64,000 nucleotides of DNA. Source: an uncultured Gemmatimonadales bacterium. Its GTDB lineage: Bacteria > Gemmatimonadota > Gemmatimonadetes > Gemmatimonadales > GWC2-71-9. Below the pieces are notes generated by a model. That model searched no databases, was not told where the DNA came from, and saw only the letters and a list, made by a program, of their open reading frames with translations. The translations under genes and the position numbers were made by a program. Position 1 is the stretch's first letter. The number at the start of each line of letters is the position of its first letter. This document shows positions 30,645 through 64,000 of this stretch, in pieces. The DNA lies in the NCBI GenBank assembly GCA_963695555.1, contig CAVOGR010000007.1, positions 795,216 through 859,215 of the forward strand, read 5' to 3'.

Positions 30645-33215
30645 ATGAAACAGGAGCCGAGAGACCTGCGGGCCACGGCGCGCGCCGGGCTGGTGCTGGT
30701 GTCGAGCATGATCGCTGCCGCCGCCGGGCCCGCCGCGGCCCAGGATGTCGCGGCTCCCGAGGTTCAGCGTGTGACGCCGTCGAGCCGCTATGCCGCGAGC
30801 GGCGCCCATCGGTTCTTCTTCGGCACCGACTACCGGCAGCTCTGGACGATGCCGATAGCGGTGGACGTGCTCGACCTCCGCACCTACGCCGGCGGACTCA
30901 CACCGGTTGGGACCGGCGGTGGGCAGCAGACAGAGGCCCTTCGTTTCGTCTCGACCGATGGCCGGCCCTTCACGTTCCGCTCGCTCGACAAGGACCCATC
31001 CGCGGTCCTCCCGCCCGATCTCCAGGACACCTTCGCGGCGCGCCTGGTGCAAGACCAGGTGAGCTCGGCCTATCCGACCGCGCCGCTCGTGGTGGACCGG
31101 ATCCTGGATGCGGCCGCCGTGCTGCACTCGAAACCCCGCATCGTGGTGCTGCCCGACGACGATCGCTTGGGTGAGTATCGCGCGCAATTTGCCGGGCGGC
31201 TGGGGACGCTCGAGCAATGGCCCAACGCGCCGGGCGACGCGCCGGCATTTGCCGGTGCGGCGGAGATCGTGAGCACCGATGACCTGTTCGAGCGACTGGA
31301 GACGGACCCCGCCAACCGGGTCGATGTCCGAGCGTACCTGACGGCGCGGCTGGTGGATGTCCTCATCGGCGACTGGGACCGCCACCGCGGGCAATGGCGG
31401 TGGGCCCGGTTCCCGGGGGAGCCCAACGTGTGGGTCCCGATTCCCGAGGATCGCGATCAGGCGTTCGCCCGCTTCGACGGCCTGTTCCTTCACCTGGCGC
31501 GGGTGCACGCACCGCAACTCGTCAAGTTCGGGAAAACGATCCCGGGAATGCTGGGTATGGCATGGAACGGCCGTGATGTCGACCGCCGCCTCCTGGCCGG
31601 ACTCGAGCACCCGGCGTGGGATTCCGTGACTGCCGCGTTGGTGGCCCGCATCACCGACAGCGCGATCGACTCGGCGGTGCGCATGCTGCCCGATGCGCAC
31701 TATGAACTCAATGGGGCCTGGCTCGCGGCAACACTCAAACAGCGGCGCGACGCGCTGCCGGCTGCCGCGGTGGCTTTCTTCCGCCACCTCGCGGGCGAAG
31801 TGGATGTCCTGGCCAGCACCCAGGACGATTCAGTCCACGTGATCCGGCGGCGCGACACGCTGGAGCTGTCCATCGTGCCCCGCGGAACTGGTGCCGTGCC
31901 GTATTATCGACGGCGATTCACTTCTTCCGCCACCAGTGAAGTGCGCCTGTACCTCATGGGGGGCGACGATCGTGTCGCGGTCGACGGAGATGGCAATGCG
32001 GGTGTCCTCTTCCGGGTCGTGAGCGGCACAGGCGATGACCGTGTCACCGACGATTCGCGCACTGGCGGCACTCGCGCGTACGACTCGCGTGCGGCCGGCG
32101 GCGTTCCGGACAGCCGGGGCGTGTCGGTCGACCGGCGACCGTACACCCCACCCGAGGTGCCGGAGGGCATGGTCCCGCCCCGGGATTGGGGCACACGGTG
32201 GTATCCGCTCACCACGGTCAGCTTCGCGCGCGACGTGGGTATGCTCGTGGGAGGCGGGTTCATCTTCCAGCGCCACGGCTTTCGTACGTATCCGTACAAG
32301 CGCCAACACACCTTCCGCGCGGGCTACGCCACGGAAGCACAGACGTTTCGCGCCGAGTACGTCGCCGACTTTCGGCGAATGAATTCCGGGGTCAGCGCAA
32401 CGTTTCGTACGCTCGCGTCGGGAATCGAGATTCTCCAGTTCCACGGTTTCGGCAACGAAACCTCTATCATCGACGACGATGATTTTTACCGGGTGAAGCA
32501 AGAGCAGTACATCATCGAGCCCACCCTGCACGTGCCGCTGGCACACAACCTGGTGTTCTCGGTCGGTCCGACGCTCAAGTACCTCTCCAGCGACCTCGAC
32601 CCCACACGACTGATCGGCCAGGCGCGCCCGTACGGATCGGACAATTTCGGCCAGGTGGGCGGCCATGCAGATCTGACGCTCGATTTGCGCGACCAACCCA
32701 GAGCACCGCGGAGCGGCATCTTCATGCAGGCCGGGGGGAGTTACTACCCATCGGCCTGGGACGTCGACAGCGGGGCCTTCGGCGAAGTGCACGGCGAAGT
32801 AGCGACCTACCTCACGGCGCCCATGCCGCTCCAGCCGACGCTGGCGCTCCGGGTCGGCGGGAAGAAGGTTTGGGGCACCTTCCCGTTCCATGAGGCGGCC
32901 TTCATCGGCGGCGAGTCGACCGTGCGCGGCTTTCATGAGCAGCGCTTTGCCGGCGACGCATCGCTCTACGGCAACGCCGAGCTCCGGCTCTTCCTCTCCA
33001 AGTTCTTCGTGCTGTTGCCGGGGGAATTCGGCGTCTTCGGCCTGGGGGATGTCGGGCGGGTGTACCTCGACGGCGAGACGTCCGACAAGTGGCATCGCGC
33101 CTTTGGTGGTGGGATCTGGTTCGCCTACCTCAACCGGCGGAACACCCTCAGCGTGGCCATTGCCGACAGTGACGAGCGTACCGGAGTGTACGTCCGGGCA
33201 GGGTTCATGTTCTGA
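30645..33215 (+). CDS. Omp85/BamA-TamA family outer-membrane protein with N-terminal kinase-like domain
   Basis: Signal peptide; GGGQQT, IGDWDRH, EDRDQAF; C-terminal barrel with VRGF motif and terminal Phe. Confidence 0.8.
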   Translation: MKQEPRDLRATARAGLVLVSSMIAAAAGPAAAQDVAAPEVQRVTPSSRYAASGAHRFFFGTDYRQLWTMPIAVDVLDLRTYAGGLTPVGTGGGQQTEALRFVSTDGRPFTFRSLDKDPSAVLPPDLQDTFAARLVQDQVSSAYPTAPLVVDRILDAAAVLHSKPRIVVLPDDDRLGEYRAQFAGRLGTLEQWPNAPGDAPAFAGAAEIVSTDDLFERLETDPANRVDVRAYLTARLVDVLIGDWDRHRGQWRWARFPGEPNVWVPIPEDRDQAFARFDGLFLHLARVHAPQLVKFGKTIPGMLGMAWNGRDVDRRLLAGLEHPAWDSVTAALVARITDSAIDSAVRMLPDAHYELNGAWLAATLKQRRDALPAAAVAFFRHLAGEVDVLASTQDDSVHVIRRRDTLELSIVPRGTGAVPYYRRRFTSSATSEVRLYLMGGDDRVAVDGDGNAGVLFRVVSGTGDDRVTDDSRTGGTRAYDSRAAGGVPDSRGVSVDRRPYTPPEVPEGMVPPRDWGTRWYPLTTVSFARDVGMLVGGGFIFQRHGFRTYPYKRQHTFRAGYATEAQTFRAEYVADFRRMNSGVSATFRTLASGIEILQFHGFGNETSIIDDDDFYRVKQEQYIIEPTLHVPLAHNLVFSVGPTLKYLSSDLDPTRLIGQARPYGSDNFGQVGGHADLTLDLRDQPRAPRSGIFMQAGGSYYPSAWDVDSGAFGEVHGEVATYLTAPMPLQPTLALRVGGKKVWGTFPFHEAAFIGGESTVRGFHEQRFAGDASLYGNAELRLFLSKFFVLLPGEFGVFGLGDVGRVYLDGETSDKWHRAFGGGIWFAYLNRRNTLSVAIADSDERTGVYVRAGFMF

Positions 33216-50967: not shown

Positions 50968-52739
50968 ATGCAACTCGATCGACTGGATTGGGCCGTGGTC
51001 GCCGTCTACGGCGTGGTGGCACTGGCGGTGGGCCTCATGTTCACCCGCCGGGCCGGACAGGGAGTTCAGGAGTTCTTCCTCTCGGGCCGGAAGCTCCCGT
51101 GGTGGCTGCTGGGCACGTCGATGGTGGCGACGACCTTCTCGACCGACACGCCGAATCTCGTCACCGACCTGGTCCGAAACGGCGGCGTGAGCCAGAACTG
51201 GCTCTGGTGGGCTTTCCTCATTACCGGCATGTTGACCGTCTTCATCTACGCCAAGCTCTGGCGCCGCTCGGGCGTGCTCACCGACATCGGCTTCTACGAG
51301 CTGCGCTACTCCGGCAAGCCGGCCGCCTTCCTGCGCGGGTTCCGGGCGCTCTACCTGGGCATCTTCTTCAACGTGATGATCATGGCCACCGTTACCCTGG
51401 CGGCCATCAAGATCGGGAACGTGCTGCTTGGGCGTCGACAAGGTCACGACGGTCGTGCTGGCCGGCGGGGTGACCGTCATCTACTCCGCCACCGCGGGCC
51501 TCTGGGGCGTGGTGGTGACCGACTTGTTGCTGTTCGCCATCGCCATGACCGGCTCGATCGCCGCGGCGTACTACGCCTTGAACCTGCCCGAGGTGGGCGG
51601 GTTGGCCGGTATGGTGCAGCATCCGGCGCTCGAGGGAAAGCTGAGCCTGCTACCCGATTTCTCGGACGGCACCACCGTGCTCGCCGTCCTTGATCGTCCC
51701 GATCGCGGTGCAGTGGTGGAGCACCTGGTATCCCGGCGCCGAGCCGGGGGGCGGCGGCTACATCGCCCAACGGATGCTGGCGGCACGGACCGAGCGCGAC
51801 TCGTTGCTGGGCACGCTCTGGTTCAACGTCGCCCATTACGCGCTCCGGCCCTGGCCCTGGGTGATCGTGGCGCTCTGCTCGCTCATCGTGTATCCCAGCC
51901 TCGACTCGATCATACTGCGGTTCCCGAACCTCGATCCGTCGATCGTGCGGCACGATCTGGCCTATCCCGCCATGCTGGTCTTCCTGCCGCACGGGCTCCT
52001 GGGGCTCGCGGTGGCGTCGCTCGCCGCGGCCTATATGTCCACCATCAGTACCCATCTCAACTGGGGCTCGTCCTACATCGTGGACGACTTCTACCGCCGC
52101 TTCATCGCCCCGAACGAGAGCGACAAGCACTACGTCATGGTCGGCCGGGTGTCGACGGTGCTGCTTATCGTGCTCGCCTCACTCGTGGCACTCGTGCTCC
52201 AGAACGCGCTCCAGGCGTTCCAGATCCTGCTCCAGGTGGGCGCGGGCACCGGCCTGATCTTCCTGTTGCGCTGGTTCTGGTGGCGGGTCAACGCGTGGAG
52301 CGAGATCACCGCGATCTCGGTCTCGTTCCTGGTGGCGGTGTACTTCCAGTTCGTGCACCAGGCCTTGGGCTTTCCGGCGCTCGACCCATCGCTGACCCTG
52401 GTGATCGGTGTGGCCATCACCACACTCACCTGGGTCGGCGTCACCTTCATGACGCCGGCCACCGACCGGGCGACCCTGCAGAGCTTCTACGACCTGATCC
52501 ACCCCATGGGCCGCGGATGGGATAACGCGGTCGAGACGGACCCGAGCGCGCAGACGGGAAGCCTGAGCGCCGGTCTCCTCTGCTGGTTTTTGGGATGCGT
52601 TGCAGTCTACTCGGCGCTATTCTGCACCGGGTACTTCCTTTATGGCAACCTGCTGGCCGCGGCCGTAGCGTTGGTGATGCTGGTCCTGGCCGCGGCATCG
52701 CTCATCAAGTTGTTCCCGCGGGTCGGCTTGATAAGCTAA
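50968..52739 (+). CDS. Sodium:solute symporter, two apparent frameshifts (~51430, ~51690)
   Basis: SMVATTFSTDTP; GLWGVVVTD; GGGYIAQRMLAA, AAYMSTISTHLNWG spread over three consecutive frames. Confidence 0.85.
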
Positions 52740-56603: not shown

Positions 56604-57083
56604 TCAGCTTCCCGGCTCGACTGGAGTTTCTTCTAGCGCCTTCTTTTCTTGGATGAGCCGGTCCGCCAGCTGTTGGTCGGTGAGGCCGGCCTTGGCGCGG
56701 ATCTGCTTGATCACGTCGACCATGTGGGCTTCGATGGTTTCCATTTCCTTCATGGCTGCGTCGCTGTCGCGGAAGCCGCGGGTGGCGTCGATGGCGAGGC
56801 CGTTGAGCCGGCGGACGTCGGCGATCAGGAGATCGACCGTACCGCGCAGGTTCCGGTGCCGGCGGCGCTCTTCGACCGGTTCGATTCGCACCGACTCGAG
56901 CACCATCTCCACCACCCTGAGGCGGCCTGCCGCCCAGATGATCGCGGCCAGGAACAGGAGTCCAGCGCCGACCCGGGTTGCCGGATCGTCCACGTAGTAG
57001 AGGGTCAGCCCCAGGCCGATCACGGCCACGGCGAGGCCGACTGAGAACAGAATGGTCTGGAAAGTCCAGCGGAAGGATGCCAT
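56604..57083 (-). CDS. Hypothetical membrane protein
   Basis: Two N-terminal TM segments then a helical region; coding-like codons. Confidence 0.65.
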   Translation of the reverse strand: MASFRWTFQTILFSVGLAVAVIGLGLTLYYVDDPATRVGAGLLFLAAIIWAAGRLRVVEMVLESVRIEPVEERRRHRNLRGTVDLLIADVRRLNGLAIDATRGFRDSDAAMKEMETIEAHMVDVIKQIRAKAGLTDQQLADRLIQEKKALEETPVEPGS

Positions 57084-57358
57084 GGACGTCCCCGCCTGCT
57101 TGGGTCGGTAAGGAACAGCCCCGTACGAAGGTAAGAATCCGGGCCGAAAGCCGCCAGCGAGCGGCCCCGGGGGCCGCAGACCTGGCCGCAGCGGATAATG
57201 GGGTGGCAAGACTGAGGCCACCGCCTCGACCAGGCCAATACCGCTATCGGGCGGGCTCCGACCGGGCGGTGTTGCAGATCGCTCCGGTTGGATTCCGATG
57301 CCCCGAGCGGTGATTTGGTGCCGCATGAAGGCGGGGGACCGGCATATACCTCTTGCGT

Positions 57359-58323
57359 ATGACCATGGAGGCTGTGCTCGAGCGGGCGCGGCGGCTCATG
57401 CGGCTCCGGCATTACAGCCACCGCACCGAGGCGACCTATGTGGGCTGGATGGTCCGTTATCTCCGGTTCCACCGGTATCGCAATCCTATCGAGCTTGGCG
57501 GGGCCGGCATTGCGGCCTTTCTCAGCCACCTGGCCGAGCGGGGGCGGGTGAGCGCGTCGACGCAGAACCAGGCGTTGAGCGCCCTGCTCTTTCTCTATCG
57601 CGACGTGCTGGGCGTTCCGCCGGGGCACATCGGTGGGATCGTCCGGGCCAAGCGTCCCAAGAAGCTGCCGGTGGTGCTCACCAAGGCGGAGGTGCGGCTG
57701 GTGTTGGCGGAGCTGTCTGGTGCCAAGCGTTTGATTGCGGCGCTGCTTGTATGGCAGTGGGCTTCGACTGATGGAGTGTTTGCGGCTTCGGGTGAAGGAC
57801 ATCGACTTCGATTCCAACCGGATCATCGTGCGCGAGGCCAAGGGCGGGCGTGACCGGGTGACCATGCTGCCGGCGCGTCTCAAGCCGGCTCCTTCGTGCC
57901 CATCTCGAGCGGGTTCGAGCCGTTCACGCGCGGGACAAGGCCGAGGGGGCGGGTGGGGTGGAGTTGCCGGCGGCGCTCGGGCGGAAGTATCCGCGGGCCG
58001 GGGCCGAGTGGGGGTGGCAGTGGGTGTTTCCTGCGGCGCGCAAGTATTGGGATCGCACGACTGGCGAGCGGCGGCGCCATCATCTCGACCCGTCGGCGGT
58101 GCAGCGGAGTGTGACGGTGGCGGTCCGGGCGAGCGGGATAGCGAAGCGGGCCAGCTGTCACACGCTCAGGCACTCGTTCGCAACCCATCTCCTGGAGGAC
58201 GGGTACGACATTCGGACCATTCAGGAGCTATTGGGCCATAAGGACGTGAGCACGACGATGATCTACACCCATGTATTGAATCGAGGCGGCCGCGGGGTGC
58301 GGAGCCCGATGGACGTGATATGA
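57359..58323 (+). CDS. intI: Integron integrase, two apparent +1 frameshifts (~57748, ~57891)
   Basis: [42 protein letters not shown], IntI-specific insert [41 protein letters not shown]. Confidence 0.95.
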
Positions 58324-58483
58324 AGAGCTACCAAACTAGGTGGCGGTTTCTGCAGTCCATCTTGCCACCGTCCATCCCCTAGGGTTTCCCCTAGTCGGGT
58401 GGGGTTGTGAATGTGCCGAGGCGGTGGACCAGGTTAGGTGGGCGAGAGATTGTGGCGGAACTTGCCGGGACGTGGCATTTTTG

Positions 58484-58505
58484 TGCAGTCCATATCTCGT
58501 TAGAC
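58484..58505 (+). other. Putative attI recombination site (core GTTAGAC 58499-58505)
   Basis: GTTRRRY core not preceded by an attC arm; 6/7 complementary to cassette 1's own inverse core CTCTAAC. Confidence 0.55.
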
Positions 58506-58548
58506 GGACGGCCGTTAAGCTGACTAGATCAGCCACTAGAATCGAGAA

Positions 58549-58734
58549 ATGAACGTGATAACAGGGTTTCAATGCTGCTTCTGTGGCGAGCCAATCACGA
58601 AGCGGGAAGACGATCCCGTGACGATGGTGATTCCGCTCAGGGGTGGTGGGACGCAAGACCTCCGTGTCACGCGGAATGTCTCGAAGCGACACTTGCACCC
58701 TTCCTTTCCTACGGCATTCGGGGGCAGCCTCTAA
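58549..58734 (+). CDS. Cassette 1: small Cys-rich protein (probable Zn-binding)
   Basis: CCFC motif; the stop codon is the TAA of attC1; an overlapping frame reads CHAECL. Confidence 0.55.
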   Translation: MNVITGFQCCFCGEPITKREDDPVTMVIPLRGGGTQDLRVTRNVSKRHLHPSFPTAFGGSL

Positions 58735-58835
58735 CCGCCGCGTGCAGTGGGCGGGCCTTGCTGGTTTGAAGGAAGTCGTTGATTTGTGGGCAGGCGGGCT
58801 GAGATGGCCCGCAACTGACACGGGATTCGTTAGAC
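58729..58835 (+). repeat. attC site 1 (107 bp)
   Basis: CTCTAAC...imperfect inverted arms...GTTAGAC. Confidence 0.92.
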
Positions 58836-58843
58836 AGCAACGA

Positions 58844-59317
58844 ATGAGATTCTTTCTACCAAGCTGTATCGTAGCAGTAATGCCCTTTCTCGGGGCCGCA
58901 TGTGGGCCAGACTTGCGCCACGATGAGGCAATCGCGGAGAAGATCGCCCAAGTCGTCAGTGGTGGTGACTCCACGATAGTCGATCTAGCAGAGATTGCCG
59001 ACTTCCCCTGGGACCGAGCATTCATCTTTGGTCCGTACACCGCTACAAGCATGATCGACAGCTCCCTTGGGTTCCAATGCAACTGCGGGTCGCTGATTCA
59101 CAGCTATGATGGTGTTGCGCTTCTTGTCTTTGTGGAGTCTGGGACAGTGAAGTTCTACACAGACGTTTGGAGTAGCCAGGCCAACATCCAGCAGTTATCC
59201 GTTCCCGAGGGATACAGGCCCAGCGAGGCCTCGTTCTGCGTGAGGACAGAGGGGGTGCTGACGGACGGCTCTCTTAACCGGGTGCTTTACCACATAGGTT
59301 CGGACAAGTGCCGATAG
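58844..59317 (+). CDS. Cassette 2: hypothetical lipoprotein (157 aa)
   Basis: FLGAAC lipobox; FPWDRAFIFGPY; ORF fills the cassette; visibly lower GC. Confidence 0.8.
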   Translation: MRFFLPSCIVAVMPFLGAACGPDLRHDEAIAEKIAQVVSGGDSTIVDLAEIADFPWDRAFIFGPYTATSMIDSSLGFQCNCGSLIHSYDGVALLVFVESGTVKFYTDVWSSQANIQQLSVPEGYRPSEASFCVRTEGVLTDGSLNRVLYHIGSDKCR

Positions 59318-59327
59318 GGAAGTTGCT

Positions 59328-59434
59328 GTCTAACCACCGCGTGCAGTGGCCGGGCCTTGCCGGGGCTGAAGGAAGTCGTTGATTAGTGCAGGGGCGGGCG
59401 AGACGGCCCGCCACTGACGCGGGATTCGTTAGGC
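59328..59434 (+). repeat. attC site 2 (107 bp)
   Basis: GTCTAAC...GTTAGGC. Confidence 0.93.
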
Positions 59435-59460
59435 GCACGGCTCCATGTGGAGATCGAATC

Positions 59461-59871
59461 ATGCAGCTCCTGAGGCTGCGGACCTGGTCCGGCAAAGGGG
59501 TTGCGGTACTTTGGCTCGTGGTCGCCATCTACATGGCCATCCCGATTGTCCTCGCTGCCGTATCTCAAGAACCGCAGTCTCCCGACCCTGCCTGGCTTGA
59601 TGATTCGGCGCTCACACCCCAGGAGCGTGCAATTCGGGACTCACTAGTGGATTCTCTCAAGGCTCTCCTGCTCGTGGCTGCTGACAATCCTGAAGCTCAG
59701 AAGATGATTGGCGGGATCGTGGACGGTATAGGGCGGGCCGTTGACAAGACTGTCGTCGCATTCCTTGTACTATACTTCGGTCCGCTCACGGCGGCGGGAG
59801 CACTAACAGCCCTTTGGGTTCGAAGTCGGCCCCGGGATAGACGCGCAGTTCAAACAGAGGCCGGCGCCTAA
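59461..59871 (+). CDS. Cassette 3: hypothetical membrane protein (136 aa)
   Basis: GGAG SD, two TM segments, stop is the TAA of attC3. Confidence 0.75.
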   Translation: MQLLRLRTWSGKGVAVLWLVVAIYMAIPIVLAAVSQEPQSPDPAWLDDSALTPQERAIRDSLVDSLKALLLVAADNPEAQKMIGGIVDGIGRAVDKTVVAFLVLYFGPLTAAGALTALWVRSRPRDRRAVQTEAGA

Positions 59872-59970
59872 CCACCGCGTGCAGTGGCCGGGCCGTGCGG
59901 GTCTAAAGGAAGTCGTTGATTTGCTCACGGTGGGCGAGCTGGCCCGCCACTGACGCGGGATCCGTTAGGC
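59866..59970 (+). repeat. attC site 3 (105 bp)
   Basis: GCCTAAC...GTTAGGC. Confidence 0.92.
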
Positions 59971-60246
59971 AGACCGACGAGGCTCCTGCGCTCAGACGGG
60001 TTGCACAACTCCGCACTGGTTCGCCGTTCCCACCTGGTTCTCACGAGGCGATGAGGCTGTTCGTCAAGCCGCCGCGCGCGACGTTCCCGTGGACAACGGG
60101 TGCCTCGCTCCGGGTCGACGCCCGTGGGTGAGCGTACTCGGATGTCACGTCTCGCTGCAGCGCTTCTGCGCCGACTCGGATCTCGGCGGTCGGCCTCTGT
60201 GGAGCGAGCCATGAGCGCGCTGACGTAGCGATCGGCACTGCGGCTG

Positions 60247-60350
60247 CCCTAACCACCGTGTGCAGTGGGCGGGCCTTGCTGGGTTCAAAGGAAGTCGTTG
60301 AATTGTGAGCGGGCGGGCTAGAGCCCGCCACTGACACGGATTCGTTAGTA
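60247..60350 (+). repeat. attC site 4 (104 bp)
   Basis: CCCTAAC...GTTAGTA; same arms and loop as the other copies. Confidence 0.88.
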
Positions 60351-60918
60351 GCGGACAGGTCTCAAGTCTCTCGACTCGAGCACTTAACCGAGCGCACCAG
60401 TCGTTGCATGATCCGCTAGTCTGCGACATCTCGGCATCGACCGGCGTCTTCAACGGCGAGGATAGCCCACTCGCGGCTGAACCAGCCCGAGAGCCGTGGC
60501 GTTGACGGCTCCCTACTCGAGCAATGGACTGCGGGCGCTCGACGAACTCGGAGCGGAACCGACGACGTGCTCGCGGGATCCCGCGAGCAGGACAGCTTCG
60601 GTCAACGACAGTAGTGCACTTGGTCGGAACCTCAAGGCCGGCTGGAAGATCGACGTTCGCGATCCTGGTATCACCAGCGGTTCTGAGGTGGATCCGGCAA
60701 CCCGAGGCGCTGGCGGCACCATCTCCGGGATTGCTCGATGGCGCGGCTCGCAGGACCGCCGATCCAGACGACCACACGGACACTTGCGCCGACGTTCGGC
60801 ATGACCGGCAGGCGCGAACGATATTGCAGCTGAGTTCCGTCGCCGCGACGGCGCCAGTCGCCAATCTGAATGCGAGTCACCGTCGCCGGGGAAAAGGCGC
60901 TGCGGTAACCGGCTAGCG

Positions 60919-61025
60919 CTCTAACAACCGCGTGCAGTGGCCGGGCCTTGCTGGTTTCAAAGGAAGTCGTTGATTAGTGAGAGGGCGGGCGAGACGGCCC
61001 GCCACTGACGCGGGATTCGTTAGGC
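60919..61025 (+). repeat. attC site 5 (107 bp)
   Basis: CTCTAAC...GTTAGGC. Confidence 0.92.
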
Positions 61026-61468
61026 GGCATGCGGGCGAACATCCAGAGCTGGCACTCGTCAGTAGAGCGATCGACGAGTGCGCGCTCACCGGGCCTACGC
61101 AGCTTCCTCAGCGATGCGCAAGACCATCGTTGCGTCGCGTCGGCCCGACGATGCGTGCCCGAGTCGTCTCTAGACCGGCATGCATTGGCTCGTCGGGCTC
61201 GACGGCGACCATCGCTTCCTTCGGGCACGAGGCCGCTCGCGACGCTGCGTCCAAGCGAGACCGGGAGTCGCTCACGAACTATCGCGGAGCTGCGATCGGC
61301 GTCACTGCTGGGGAGTCGCCAGATCAGGCCGAGTGCCGAGGCTCGCGGTGGCAGCGACGTCGTCTGACAGGGGACTCGAGTAGCGTCATCGTTCATCGGC
61401 GTCCGAGACATCGAGGTGCAGTTCATTCGACGAGCAGCGCCATCTGGACAGTGCGAGGACATCGAGCC

Positions 61469-61575
61469 GCCTAACCACCGCGTGCAGTGGCCGGGCCTTG
61501 CCGGGTTCAAAGGAAGTCATTGATTTGTGAGAGGGCGGGCGAGATGGCCCGCCACTGACGCGGGATTCGTTAGGC
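61469..61575 (+). repeat. attC site 6 (107 bp)
   Basis: GCCTAAC...GTTAGGC. Confidence 0.93.
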
Positions 61576-62093
61576 GGCTCGATCTAGGTTCCAGCCCAAT
61601 TCCACTGCTGGAGGCCTCGTGCACCGTGTCAGCAGTCTCCTTCACCAATGGCAGATGTCGCTGCTGTCTGACGCCAACCTGTACCGGACGCCTACCCACG
61701 TTGTCGCCTGGTAAGCGCTCGAACCCGGGCGCTCGCGACAAGGCCAAGCCACGAGCGAGGCTCGCTCATTCCTCACGAGGACCATAGCCACGGTTTAAGG
61801 CTCGGGGGCGTGCGTCTTGCAGGTCGGTTATCGAGCTGACAGTCCGAGTGATCGCTCGCTCGAAGATCAGCATCGGGGAGGTCAGTGCGTTCAGGAGCTC
61901 TACGGGCTCCGCGACGCCGGATCGGCAGCGACTCGTACACGTACAGGCCCGATTGACTTACTGCGTGAATGGTCCAGAAGCTGGGACGTCTGGGAACGCA
62001 AGACGAGATTGGCATCGCGGGCGCGCGAACGGCAAATGGACCGCGGACATCGGGAACCAATCACAGGCACGCTCGGTGAATCGCCAAGGAGCC

Positions 62094-62200
62094 GTCTAAC
62101 CACCGCGTGCAGTGGCCGGGCCTTGCTGGTTTCAACGGAAGTCGTTGATTTGTGAGTGGGCGGGCTTGCTGGCCCGCCACTGACGCGGGATTCGTTAGGC
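62094..62200 (+). repeat. attC site 7 (107 bp)
   Basis: GTCTAAC...GTTAGGC. Confidence 0.93.
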
Positions 62201-62391
62201 AGTCTAGGCCTTCACGTCTTCGCAGCTCCGTTCCAGTTCCAACTCCTCAACGGACTATGTGGTTGTTCGTCTCTGTCGGTCGGCTCCTTGGGGCCAGCGG
62301 GTCCGCTCCGGGTTCGCGCCGGTGGGTTAGGGTTTTCCCTAGTGCTCCGAGCAGTCCCGGAGCCGACCGGGCCGAGGTCGTGCGGCCGGGG

Positions 62392-62498
62392 CCCTAACGC
62401 CGTGTGCAGCTGACGGGCGGGCGCTTGTGTTTTGAAGGAAGTCGTTGAATTGTGTGAGCGGCGGGCATAGAGCCCGCAGCTACACGGATTCGTTAGGC
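62392..62498 (+). repeat. attC site 8 (107 bp, variant arms)
   Basis: CCCTAAC...GTTAGGC; arms CAGCTG/CAGCT replace CAGTGG/CCACTG. Confidence 0.85.
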
Positions 62499-62683
62499 GG
62501 CCAAGGCCTTGGTTGGTTTAGGCAGCTGCGGGGTCATGCCTGGATTGCGGTCAAGTGGGGACGGGAACCATGGGTTGGCCGCATGACCAACCACGGACGG
62601 GGCTTGGTGCACGCGAACTGGGGACCCCACCGCTCTCCCGAAACAATACACAGGGACGTAGATGGGCTGGGGAAGCTTTTAGC

Positions 62684-62801
62684 CTCCAACCACCGCGTGC
62701 AGGCTGGCCGGGCCTTGCTGGTTCTTGAGAGGAAGGTCGGGTTGATTAATGGAATGGGCGGCCCGAGATGTGCCCGCCACTGACCAGGGATTTCGTTAGA
62801 C
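62684..62801 (+). repeat. attC site 9 (118 bp, degenerate or error-rich)
   Basis: CTCCAAC...GTTAGAC; several small insertions relative to consensus. Confidence 0.8.
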
Positions 62802-63595
62802 GGCGGGGAATTTGGATTGTTCTGGGTAGTGGATGGCACTTGCATGCACTTGGAGGTTTCGGTGAACCGCATGGGGGCGAATCTCGGGCGTCTCAGCTCT
62901 TCTATGCAGCGTTATCGGCTGTGGGGACTCAGATGTCGGACCGCCTCATTTCAGTTGGATACACCACCGGAGGTAGTGAGCCAGCGAGTTCACATTTGAC
63001 ACGTTGGCCCGCACTGCGCACATTCGTGCTGCAAGCTCCAAGACCCCCGATGGCCCGGTGGAACGTTGACTGCAAATTCGGGTTTCGAGGGCACTGGGGC
63101 TAATTCCGGTCAGCAATTGTGGAGTCGTTTGCCGATCTAAGATGGCGAGGCACTGTTACCCAATGCCTACTCACGCAGAGTGATACCACAGTTGAGCATT
63201 GGACCGCAGCGAGATTTCGACTGCCCAGTGGTTCGATCATCCTCCTGAGCCTTCTCTGAGCATCCCAGCGACCGCTCTGATCGCCGGTTACCCCCAGCCA
63301 CGTTTTAACGTTACTGCACAGGATGATTGGGGAATTGACGTATACTGGTTGAGCATAGCACCGGGGAACGTATCTCGAGTTGCACGCTGAACTGGACGCG
63401 CATTACGACGCGCAAATCGCAGAAGCGCATCGCCCTGGCCTTGGTTCCATTCGATTGACGTTGTATCTCCCCGGGCCAGGGGGTTCACTTGCATTGTGGG
63501 TTCGCGGTGAGAGATGATTTTGGTCACAATGGTAGGAGTAGGCGGCGAGCTCACAGTCGGCCCCTGACGTGTATCGGGCATGTTTGGCTGCCGCC

Positions 63596-63702
63596 GTCTA
63601 ACCACCGCGTGCAGTGGCCGGGCCTTGCTGGCACTCAAGGAAGTCGTTGATTAGTGCACAGGCGGGCGAGACGGCCCGCCACTGACGCGGGATTCGTTAG
63701 AC
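63596..63702 (+). repeat. attC site 10 (107 bp)
   Basis: GTCTAAC...GTTAGAC. Confidence 0.93.
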
Positions 63703-63714
63703 AGCGCCAAAGAA

Positions 63715-64000
63715 ATGGCAATGGAACCCGACGCTCCTCGCCTGCGAGCCTACCTGCGACGTGCTGTGAACAGGCCAGTGCTCATCATGCCGCGGCAGGA
63801 TTGGAACCAACTCGGCCTCCAGCCAGGCGGACAATTGGTGCCCGTGGACCTGGCTACAACGCCGATGTCGAAGGTCAGTAGCGATGCATCCATTCTCGGA
63901 GCCGTTGCACAGCAGTTCTCAAATGCCACTGCAGAGGTCATGATCTACAGGGATGACCCCAACGATGCGCCCAAGCGCGTGAATGCAGATCCATACCTTG
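63715..64000 (+). CDS. Cassette 11: hypothetical protein (3'-truncated by window edge)
   Basis: ATG 12 nt after the attC10 core; frame MAMEPDAPRLRAYLRRAVNRPVLIMPRQDW... stays open to the window end. Confidence 0.6.
   Translation, partial: MAMEPDAPRLRAYLRRAVNRPVLIMPRQDWNQLGLQPGGQLVPVDLATTPMSKVSSDASILGAVAQQFSNATAEVMIYRDDPNDAPKRVNADPYL

Follow-up and report, generated by a model that had tools for sequence, protein, structure and literature searches.

A reverse integron at the end of the window

The window analysed here, a 64,000-nucleotide (nt) stretch from an uncultured Gemmatimonadales bacterium of the lineage GWC2-71-9 (assembly GCA_963695555.1, contig CAVOGR010000007.1, positions 795,216 to 859,215), ends in an array of gene cassettes separated by attC recombination sites, the loops of which share a motif resembling a ribosome-binding site followed by start codons. 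The array is preceded by intI, the integron integrase gene (57359..58323; this gene and all cassette genes, frames and recombination sites below lie on the forward strand). The intI frame is broken twice in this assembly, and both end pieces have TIGR02249 as their best match, below the cut-off. Since the gene is also broken at the same locus in congener G002 and intact, with 365 amino acids (aa), in congener G004, the assembly appears prone to indel errors. A further sign of such errors is a membrane transporter gene at 51428-52739, apparently split by a frameshift. The orientation of intI, judged from sequence, is that of the cassettes, as in reverse integrons, and the long array consists of a homogeneous attC family. 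The chromosomal array at the window end is a sedentary chromosomal integron of the reverse type.

The attI region (58470..58505) carries the core GTTAGAC at 58499-58505. The same attI precedes different cassettes in congeners, which indirectly supports the view that IntI may recombine these attC sites. Contig C10 carries a near-identical attI behind tRNA-Pro; there (G000, ~31650-32000), as in G002 (L016, 18540-18860), the second attI-like site is followed by an array with no intI nearby. Between intI and attI lies a palindrome, CTAGGG-N4-CCCTAG (58379..58394), and TAGGG-N3-6-CCCTA occurs 29 times in the genome. The region just upstream of intI (57340-57361) apparently lacks any Shine-Dalgarno (SD) sequence, with an AT-rich stretch directly before the ATG; in G002, TAACCT stands 6 nt before the intI ATG, a leaderless layout.

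The window contains ten attC sites (58729-63702), nine of which fold as bottom-strand hairpins with a terminal loop and RYYYAAC...GTTRRRY ends, the sequence of attC9 being garbled. Genome-wide, 37 array attC matches were found on contigs C7, C8 and C10, together with decayed copies. Isolated or decayed attC copies also lie outside arrays (G000 C14, C7:268397, C7:384816 and C2:289878), several with a recognisable loop motif. No Rfam match at E<=1 was obtained across 57000-64000. Four sequencing datasets (assembled contigs, other strains) each contained 6-7% of the words; intI, attC and the gene-less cassette family described below were covered, the other cassettes were not.

Gene calls are open reading frame (ORF) heuristics, not annotation. 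The general attC finder overlooks noisy sites such as attC8 and attC9, and the order-wide counts of frames and integration host factor (IHF) boxes and the subfamily loop counts omit such sites, whereas the frame counts of the window, the alignment of the gene-less family and the exact-TAA shuffle test include attC8 and attC9. Cassettes >2500 nt or <100 nt, attC under 78-85 nt and duplicates were left out of the counts, as were four near-duplicate cassettes in the one-per-family test. A convincing match to the tail of the host 16S rRNA was not found in the assembly; all SD energies refer to a generic anti-SD sequence.

The loop motif and the frames that leave it

Among 75 distinct sites of this attC type, the columns of the motif were conserved at 0.84-1.0 (with the GGAA and TTGA.T columns fixed by the search anchor) and the arms similarly, compared with 0.41-0.84 at the flanking loop positions. 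The strongly conserved loop motif reported for the ten-site region by the sequence-only reading, an earlier description of this DNA made from its letters, is thus present. Conservation of a motif within one sedentary attC family is expected, and the arms are equally conserved. The motif reads GG-AAGTCG-7 nt-GTG in this genus and contains three candidate starts, TTG(A), TTG(TG) and GTG, each in a different frame, so that allowing "GTG/TTG" inflates the in-frame rate. Its core, TTGATT(A/T)GT, recurs in 21 flank-defined subfamilies of 83-170 bp. Some 167-170-bp attC from a more AT-rich source (L165, L179, L200 and others) share up to ~20 identical loop bases with the motif of our genome while their arms differ.

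In the window, the motif of attC1 (58729..58835) spans 58769-58788, and its GTG, 44 nt upstream of the crossover, opens 10 codons followed by a stop. The cassette 2 gene behind it (58844..59317; 157 aa, signal-peptide-like start, no NCBIfam or Pfam match) has no SD, as claimed earlier, and is in frame only with the overlapping TTG(TG) at 58784; the GTG frame does not reach it. The GTG of attC2 (59328..59434) at 59386, 43 nt upstream of the crossover, is indeed fused in frame to the cassette 3 gene (59461..59871; 136 aa), a gene that nonetheless has its own SD (GGAG 8 nt upstream of the ATG, -6.4 kcal/mol) and whose sole database relative is its own 136-aa record. GCT replaces GTG in attC3 (59866..59970), and the GTG frame of attC4 (60247..60350) ends after 9 codons. 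The GTG of attC5 (60919..61025) at 60977 opens 165 aa across a cassette without a recognisable gene (60977..61474), ending at the next TAA. That of attC6 (61469..61575) opens 86 aa and terminates within the cassette. From the GTG of attC7 (62094..62200) at 62152, 81 aa (62152-62397) lead to the next TAA through a gene-less copy of a ~201-nt multi-copy cassette family (62195..62397; 203 nt, private indels, palindrome at 62327-62342). In attC8 (62392..62498), of a second subtype, TGA follows the GTG immediately; attC9 (62684..62801) has many single-base insertions and no fold; and the 75-aa GTG frame of attC10 (63596..63702) does not share the frame of the gene that begins at 63715. Both open frames, and the lack of any such frame after attC3, 6, 8 and 10, agree with the earlier description.

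Across the 63 sites of the organism's own genus, the GTG frame crosses the right arm without a stop, as had been proposed for these leaders, in 42; it stops inside the site in 12, and 9 have no start codon. Loss of the loop GTG, or a TGA directly after it, occurs in a sizeable minority of sites. In 53 of the 63, the TTG(A) frame meets a stop within the attC, before the core-site TAG. At 88 distinct junctions, the GTG lies 43 nt (50 junctions), 42 nt (13), 44 nt (12), 41 nt (11), 40 nt (1) or 45 nt (1) from the crossover. The SD match has a median of -6.3 kcal/mol, with 12 of 17 distinct upstream sequences at <= -6; the AGGA stands 5 nt from TTG(A), 10 from TTG(TG) and 12 from GTG, the SD peak of the host being at 5-9. 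Signals for transcription or a constrained leader were not found: none of the 36 array attC of this genus has a TAnnnT box with a start 5-8 nt further on, -10-box patterns gave no match in five genomes of the genus (this one and four congeners), no attC of the window contains a consensus promoter, and neither a stop or indel bias in the leader frame nor a leader ending at the core-site TAG, of the type of ORF-11 in class 1 integrons, was seen in this genus. In read-through RNA, the loop would close a hairpin of -51 to -64 kcal/mol.

A promoter-like box and a mini-ORF in sister genera

A motif of the form GG(A/T)A-N9-TTGT, chosen after seeing the data, occurs in 13 of 48 subfamily representatives, on the top strand only (shuffle mean 0.09). 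Searching 301 genomes with the same pattern, with no promoter required, brought up hexamers of the TAGAAT/TAGTCT type from other genera of the family. In these sister genera, the homologous position is laid out as GG-TAnnnT-7 nt-GTG or as TAnnnT-5 nt-ATG. In one loop from the search, TGTGG-TAGAAT-TGCATTT-GTG, 12 of 18 bases match the motif of our genome without gaps (by eye). TAnnnT stands at the same place in 42 of 60 distinct loops, as ten hexamers that differ only at the middle three positions, and is present on the top strand of 50 of 92 representatives against 28.4 +/- 3.9 after shuffling (bottom strand, 18 against 20.3). Of 401 genomes of the family, the box patterns match 16 and 32, often more than once per genome, compared with single matches in 7 and 6 for the controls.

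The -10 and -35 consensus hexamers of sigma-70 promoters served as the reference. Among 3284 candidate ATGs of the host, TAnnnT lies 6, 7 and 8 nt upstream 35, 25 and 28 times, respectively, against a background of 13.5, and the hexamers near these ATGs are of the same kind as those in the loops of the relatives. With TAnnnT at a host-like spacing, the relatives' loops fit the leaderless sigma-70 layout of the host and are predicted promoters. The box is often accompanied by TGn and by a -35-like hexamer, CTGRCG, 17 nt upstream, the -35 being weak (3-4 of 6 positions). GUG functions as a leaderless start in some GC-rich bacteria, according to PMC9031893.

The frame opened by the relatives' GTG is equally regular. 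Over 14 codons, or 27 in long sites, it leads to a stop formed by the TAG of the GTTAG core that the next cassette supplies, and 75 of 84 promoter-type sites are in this frame. In-frame stops are absent from 43 and 30 distinct loop segments (0/43 and 0/30), compared with 9/12 and 8/15 when the other frames are read (P=0.03 for each by column shuffling), and indels affect 12 of 54 sites to the left of the GTG and 2 of 54 to its right. In a hold-out with criteria fixed beforehand (165 new attC from 26 further genomes, found with patterns that required the box and left the frame free), 55 of 63 sites were in frame, at distances of 41, 77 and 80, and 51 of 63 ended at the TAG; for box-less sites, the figure was 17 of 53. 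An 86/89-bp subtype with TAnnnT-5 nt-ATG, which the searches had not selected for, also ends at the TAG (distances 41 and 44), as do 45 of all 51 ATG sites and 19 of 24 at the level of subfamilies. Where it is constrained, the frame ends at the core TAG, a layout that corresponds to termination-reinitiation and is the reverse of fusion. In the 41-nt class, box-less sites show a strong SD lying 10 nt ahead of the GTG (with a median of -8.5 as against -3.7 kcal/mol), a contrast that is partly built in, the two signals sharing positions.

Single arrays in which attC with and without the -10 box stand side by side were seen in L140 (G094), L138 (G063) and L379 (G340); in G094, GGAGG replaces the box in ~14 sites and the TAG frame is mostly kept. 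Start codons appear to be compensated in L138, L148-L149 and L370, with ATG in place of GTG in two sites and, in one, GCG in place of GTG and an in-frame ATG directly after it. In some promoter-type loops (L154, L151, L138), a short palindrome of the form GTGAAC-GTTCAC shares bases with the predicted start and could be an operator.

The loop as a proposed promoter-less form of an expression module

Taken on its own, the existence of a promoter and mini-ORF module in the attC sites of the relatives seems probable. Sigma-70 RNA polymerase would start at or beside the start codon of the loop, and the transcript would lack the left arm of the attC and hence the hairpin. Leaderless ribosomes would read ~14 codons, terminate at the TAG and then initiate again at the cassette gene. 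For the genus of the window, we lean on balance towards the view that the loop is a promoter-less, frame-shifted form of this module, probably either a relic or an entry point for ribosomes that is weak and indifferent to frame, and not a fusion device. No transcript would start in the loop here, and ribosomes that did initiate at the GTG would enter the next cassette in whatever frame results and terminate at random. The absence of a box, the moderate SD, the 40-45-nt spread and the loss of GTG suggest that the constraint seen in the relatives has been released, and since the GTG lies mostly 43 instead of 41 nt from the crossover, the leader would read on past the TAG and stop anywhere. The difference between the genera may reflect loss here or gain in the sister genera. 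The earlier proposal that the loop is a translation-start element finds backing in the relatives, where the same GTG opens a constrained short frame, and not in the form of a fusion device.

Several observations weigh against this interpretation. A relic should decay, yet the motif is conserved like the arms and its core recurs across subfamilies, which suggests a present function. The control pattern TAnnnnT was also raised at the 72% cut (40/92 against 28.3). Stop avoidance did not reach significance in the long discovery class (P=0.15) or in the hold-out (1/41 against 2.8, P=0.135; 0/9 against 1.4, P=0.18), where 8 of 63 sites were out of frame. Genes behind TAG-terminating attCs have an SD of their own about as often (10/25) as those elsewhere (11/22 and 17/52). 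The attC subfamilies are kin, so that the counts are not independent and all P values are overstated, and few length classes (41, 44, 77 and 80) underlie the frame rule. In this genome, assembly indel errors blur the frames. Finally, frames running open to the exact TAA are more common in gene-less cassettes than in shuffled ones, at borderline significance (2/17 against 0.41, P=0.042; 2/13 with one cassette per family, P=0.049), the two cases having been picked before the test, and open frames of any kind exceed the shuffled number (4 against 1.47, P=0.021), three of the four coming from one family (one per family, P=0.13).

Alternative functions of the loop

The main rival explanation, possible though rather unlikely, is that the motif continues to act as an SD-led start. 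In one form of this idea, the TTG 5 nt after the AGGA would open a 12-codon leader running to the right-arm TGA, in the manner of ORF-11; in the other, read-through from the GTG would maintain ribosomes on non-coding cassettes and limit polarity, the frame being irrelevant. The strong conservation of the motif, its SD energies and the 53 of 63 TTG(A) frames that stop inside the attC are what this would lead one to expect, translation upstream is described as shaping the expression of the downstream cassette (PMC11511950), and under a fixed SD-plus-codon rule the TAG frame is the one chosen in 24 of 46 box-less subfamilies (P=0.006, the subfamilies not being independent). However, in the main subfamily of this genus the same rule selects the read-through GTG (40/48), which at 12 nt from the AGGA lies beyond the host peak and is missing from 9 of 63 sites or, in the second subtype, directly followed by TGA. 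Furthermore, the spacer is conserved as much as the SD, three codons in three frames ensure that one always fits, and the hairpin would stand in the read-through RNA.

We consider it unlikely that the Gemmatimonadales attC is a portable expression switch, with "on" sites, in which a promoter and a leaderless mini-ORF would pass ribosomes to any cassette that comes next, and "off" sites that lack them, and in which the two-base shift seen here would send SD-loaded ribosomes through the crossover into any downstream DNA, including non-coding cassettes, as raw material for new genes. If it were, shuffling would rewire expression with no need for a cassette to move to attI.

It is very doubtful that the motif is a binding site for a protein, in the simplest case an IHF box (AATCAA-N4-TT on the bottom strand) that would bend the centre of the palindrome and affect cruciform extrusion. 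The IHF consensus is WATCAA-N4-TTR. The pattern AA-N4-TTGA(T/A) is present in 33 of 35 attC of this genome and agrees with the consensus at 12 of 13 positions, the last base being off, and the genome encodes one IHF-beta-like protein. However, the pattern was found in none of 15 genomes outside the genus, and an AA at this distance is present in only 5 of the 21 flank-defined subfamilies that share the TTGATT core. In intergenic DNA of the host, the N4 spacing is not clearly enriched (15 occurrences against 4-15 for other spacings), and the three HU/IHF proteins all score below curated cut-offs, with no clear alpha subunit found among them.

Fusion to the next cassette is at chance

The sequence-only reading had proposed that the loops are portable starts that fuse a leader, here of 15-25 residues, to the next gene or make new proteins from empty cassettes. 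This is highly unlikely, given that the in-frame fractions do not exceed the null expectation of 1/3. The 88 distinct junctions of this attC type include 31 with a long ATG frame, of which 26 are coding-like and 18 keep the GTG. Open fusions number 5 among these 18, which equals the null (P=0.80), and 2 of 11 in this genome. SD-less genes are in frame with the loop GTG in 2 of 11 cases, and across the order the in-frame count for all junctions is 14 of 59. The out-of-frame leaders of this genome stop 40-167 nt past the gene start, and several of the fused genes have, by eye, a signal-peptide-like N-terminus at their own ATG.

In favour of this proposal are the 5 open fusions and the two gene-less cassettes whose frames run as far as the exact TAA (P=0.042-0.049). 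The 165-aa frame, however, has a flat GC content by codon position (0.66/0.66/0.64) and no codon bias, no homologue at the protein level among sequences of near length and no family match, only 27-40-nt scraps of nucleotide identity in 200 family genomes, and low recognition in the Atlas (best 0.78). The 81-aa frame belongs to a family of which 15 copies were aligned, 10 with an upstream loop GTG, and the TAA ending is found in 1 of these 10, the window copy with its private indels. Fusions to genes do not go beyond chance, and a gene-birth reading is not supported. The fusions and open frames arise mechanically, from a GC-rich arm that has two stops in one frame.

The least probable explanation is family homogeneity, in which the attC of one sedentary integron share ancestry and the promoter and frame patterns of the relatives are inherited accidents: the arms are conserved like the motif, length classes are few and hold-out stop avoidance is not significant, but the motif exceeds the surrounding loop in conservation, the hexamers vary only at the free -10 positions, and the rule also holds in the ATG subtype, a separate one that has a different spacing and a 3-nt indel.

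Three further candidates were rejected: a CsrA/RsmA site (ANGGA), PF02599 being found in 0 of 5 genomes; sigma-54 and extracytoplasmic function (ECF) sigma factor layouts, the spacing of which does not fit (by eye, against the known consensus); and GG(A/T)A-N9-TTGT as a regulon motif of the host, with 17 intergenic matches against 8-23 at other spacings.

Relation to known integron expression systems

In the standard model, cassettes are promoterless, a single promoter lies at attI and attC hairpins act as barriers. If the module of the relatives works, the recombination site would also supply its neighbour with transcription and ribosomes, long arrays need not be silent, and the type of the upstream attC would set the expression of a cassette. 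The module makes exact predictions, namely a start at the loop GTG or ATG, a 14-codon leader and a stop at the core TAG, and our genome would represent its natural negative form. We found no paper on a conserved, family-wide promoter, IHF box or leader in attC loops in a literature search with thin coverage of subscription journals and none of supplements.

The closest parallel is ORF-11 in attI1 of class 1 integrons, a short SD-led leader over the crossover whose TAG stop comes from the GTTRRRY core of the inserted cassette (Hanau-Bercot 2002, as described in PMC8876359). The attC frames of the relatives end at the same core TAG and would likewise act by coupling, not fusion. They differ in that ORF-11 belongs to attI, whereas the relatives' module lies in attC, recurs along the array and carries its -10 box in a leaderless position; the frame of our genome, unlike ORF-11, has its stop elsewhere than at the TAG. 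For single sites of mobile integrons, short ORFs inside attC that lessen the barrier posed by the hairpin have been described, with re-initiation after an upstream stop (Jacquier 2009, as described in PMC8876359), and PMC11511950 refers to such cases as anecdotal. Like the frame of the relatives, they lie within attC and are proposed to carry ribosomes to the next cassette, whereas here the feature is family-wide, placed in the loop and provided with its own predicted initiation signal. In Vibrio DAT722, the next cassette is driven from a promoter that overlaps an attC, with an effect of about 40-fold in quantitative PCR (PMC2945992); as described there, it is one junction-specific promoter, with no conserved loop element and no leader ORF.

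Gene-less promoter cassettes serve as internal sources of transcription for long arrays in Vibrionaceae and Treponema (PMC11014356, PMC6557892), with the promoter in the cassette body and not in the attC loop. As in Treponema, the integron of our genus is of the reverse type and contains a multi-copy gene-less cassette, known here from sequence. At least 15 copies of this ~201-nt cassette occur in three genomes (the window, C8, C10, L016, L041, L024 and L026), and in G002 no fewer than four positions in succession from the intI-linked attI onwards are taken up by it, as is the position next to the tRNA-Pro attI. That it stands in for the missing attC promoter is a speculation. It carries the CTAGGG-N4-CCCTAG palindrome, which is also found at 58379 and at ~20 further places in the genome.

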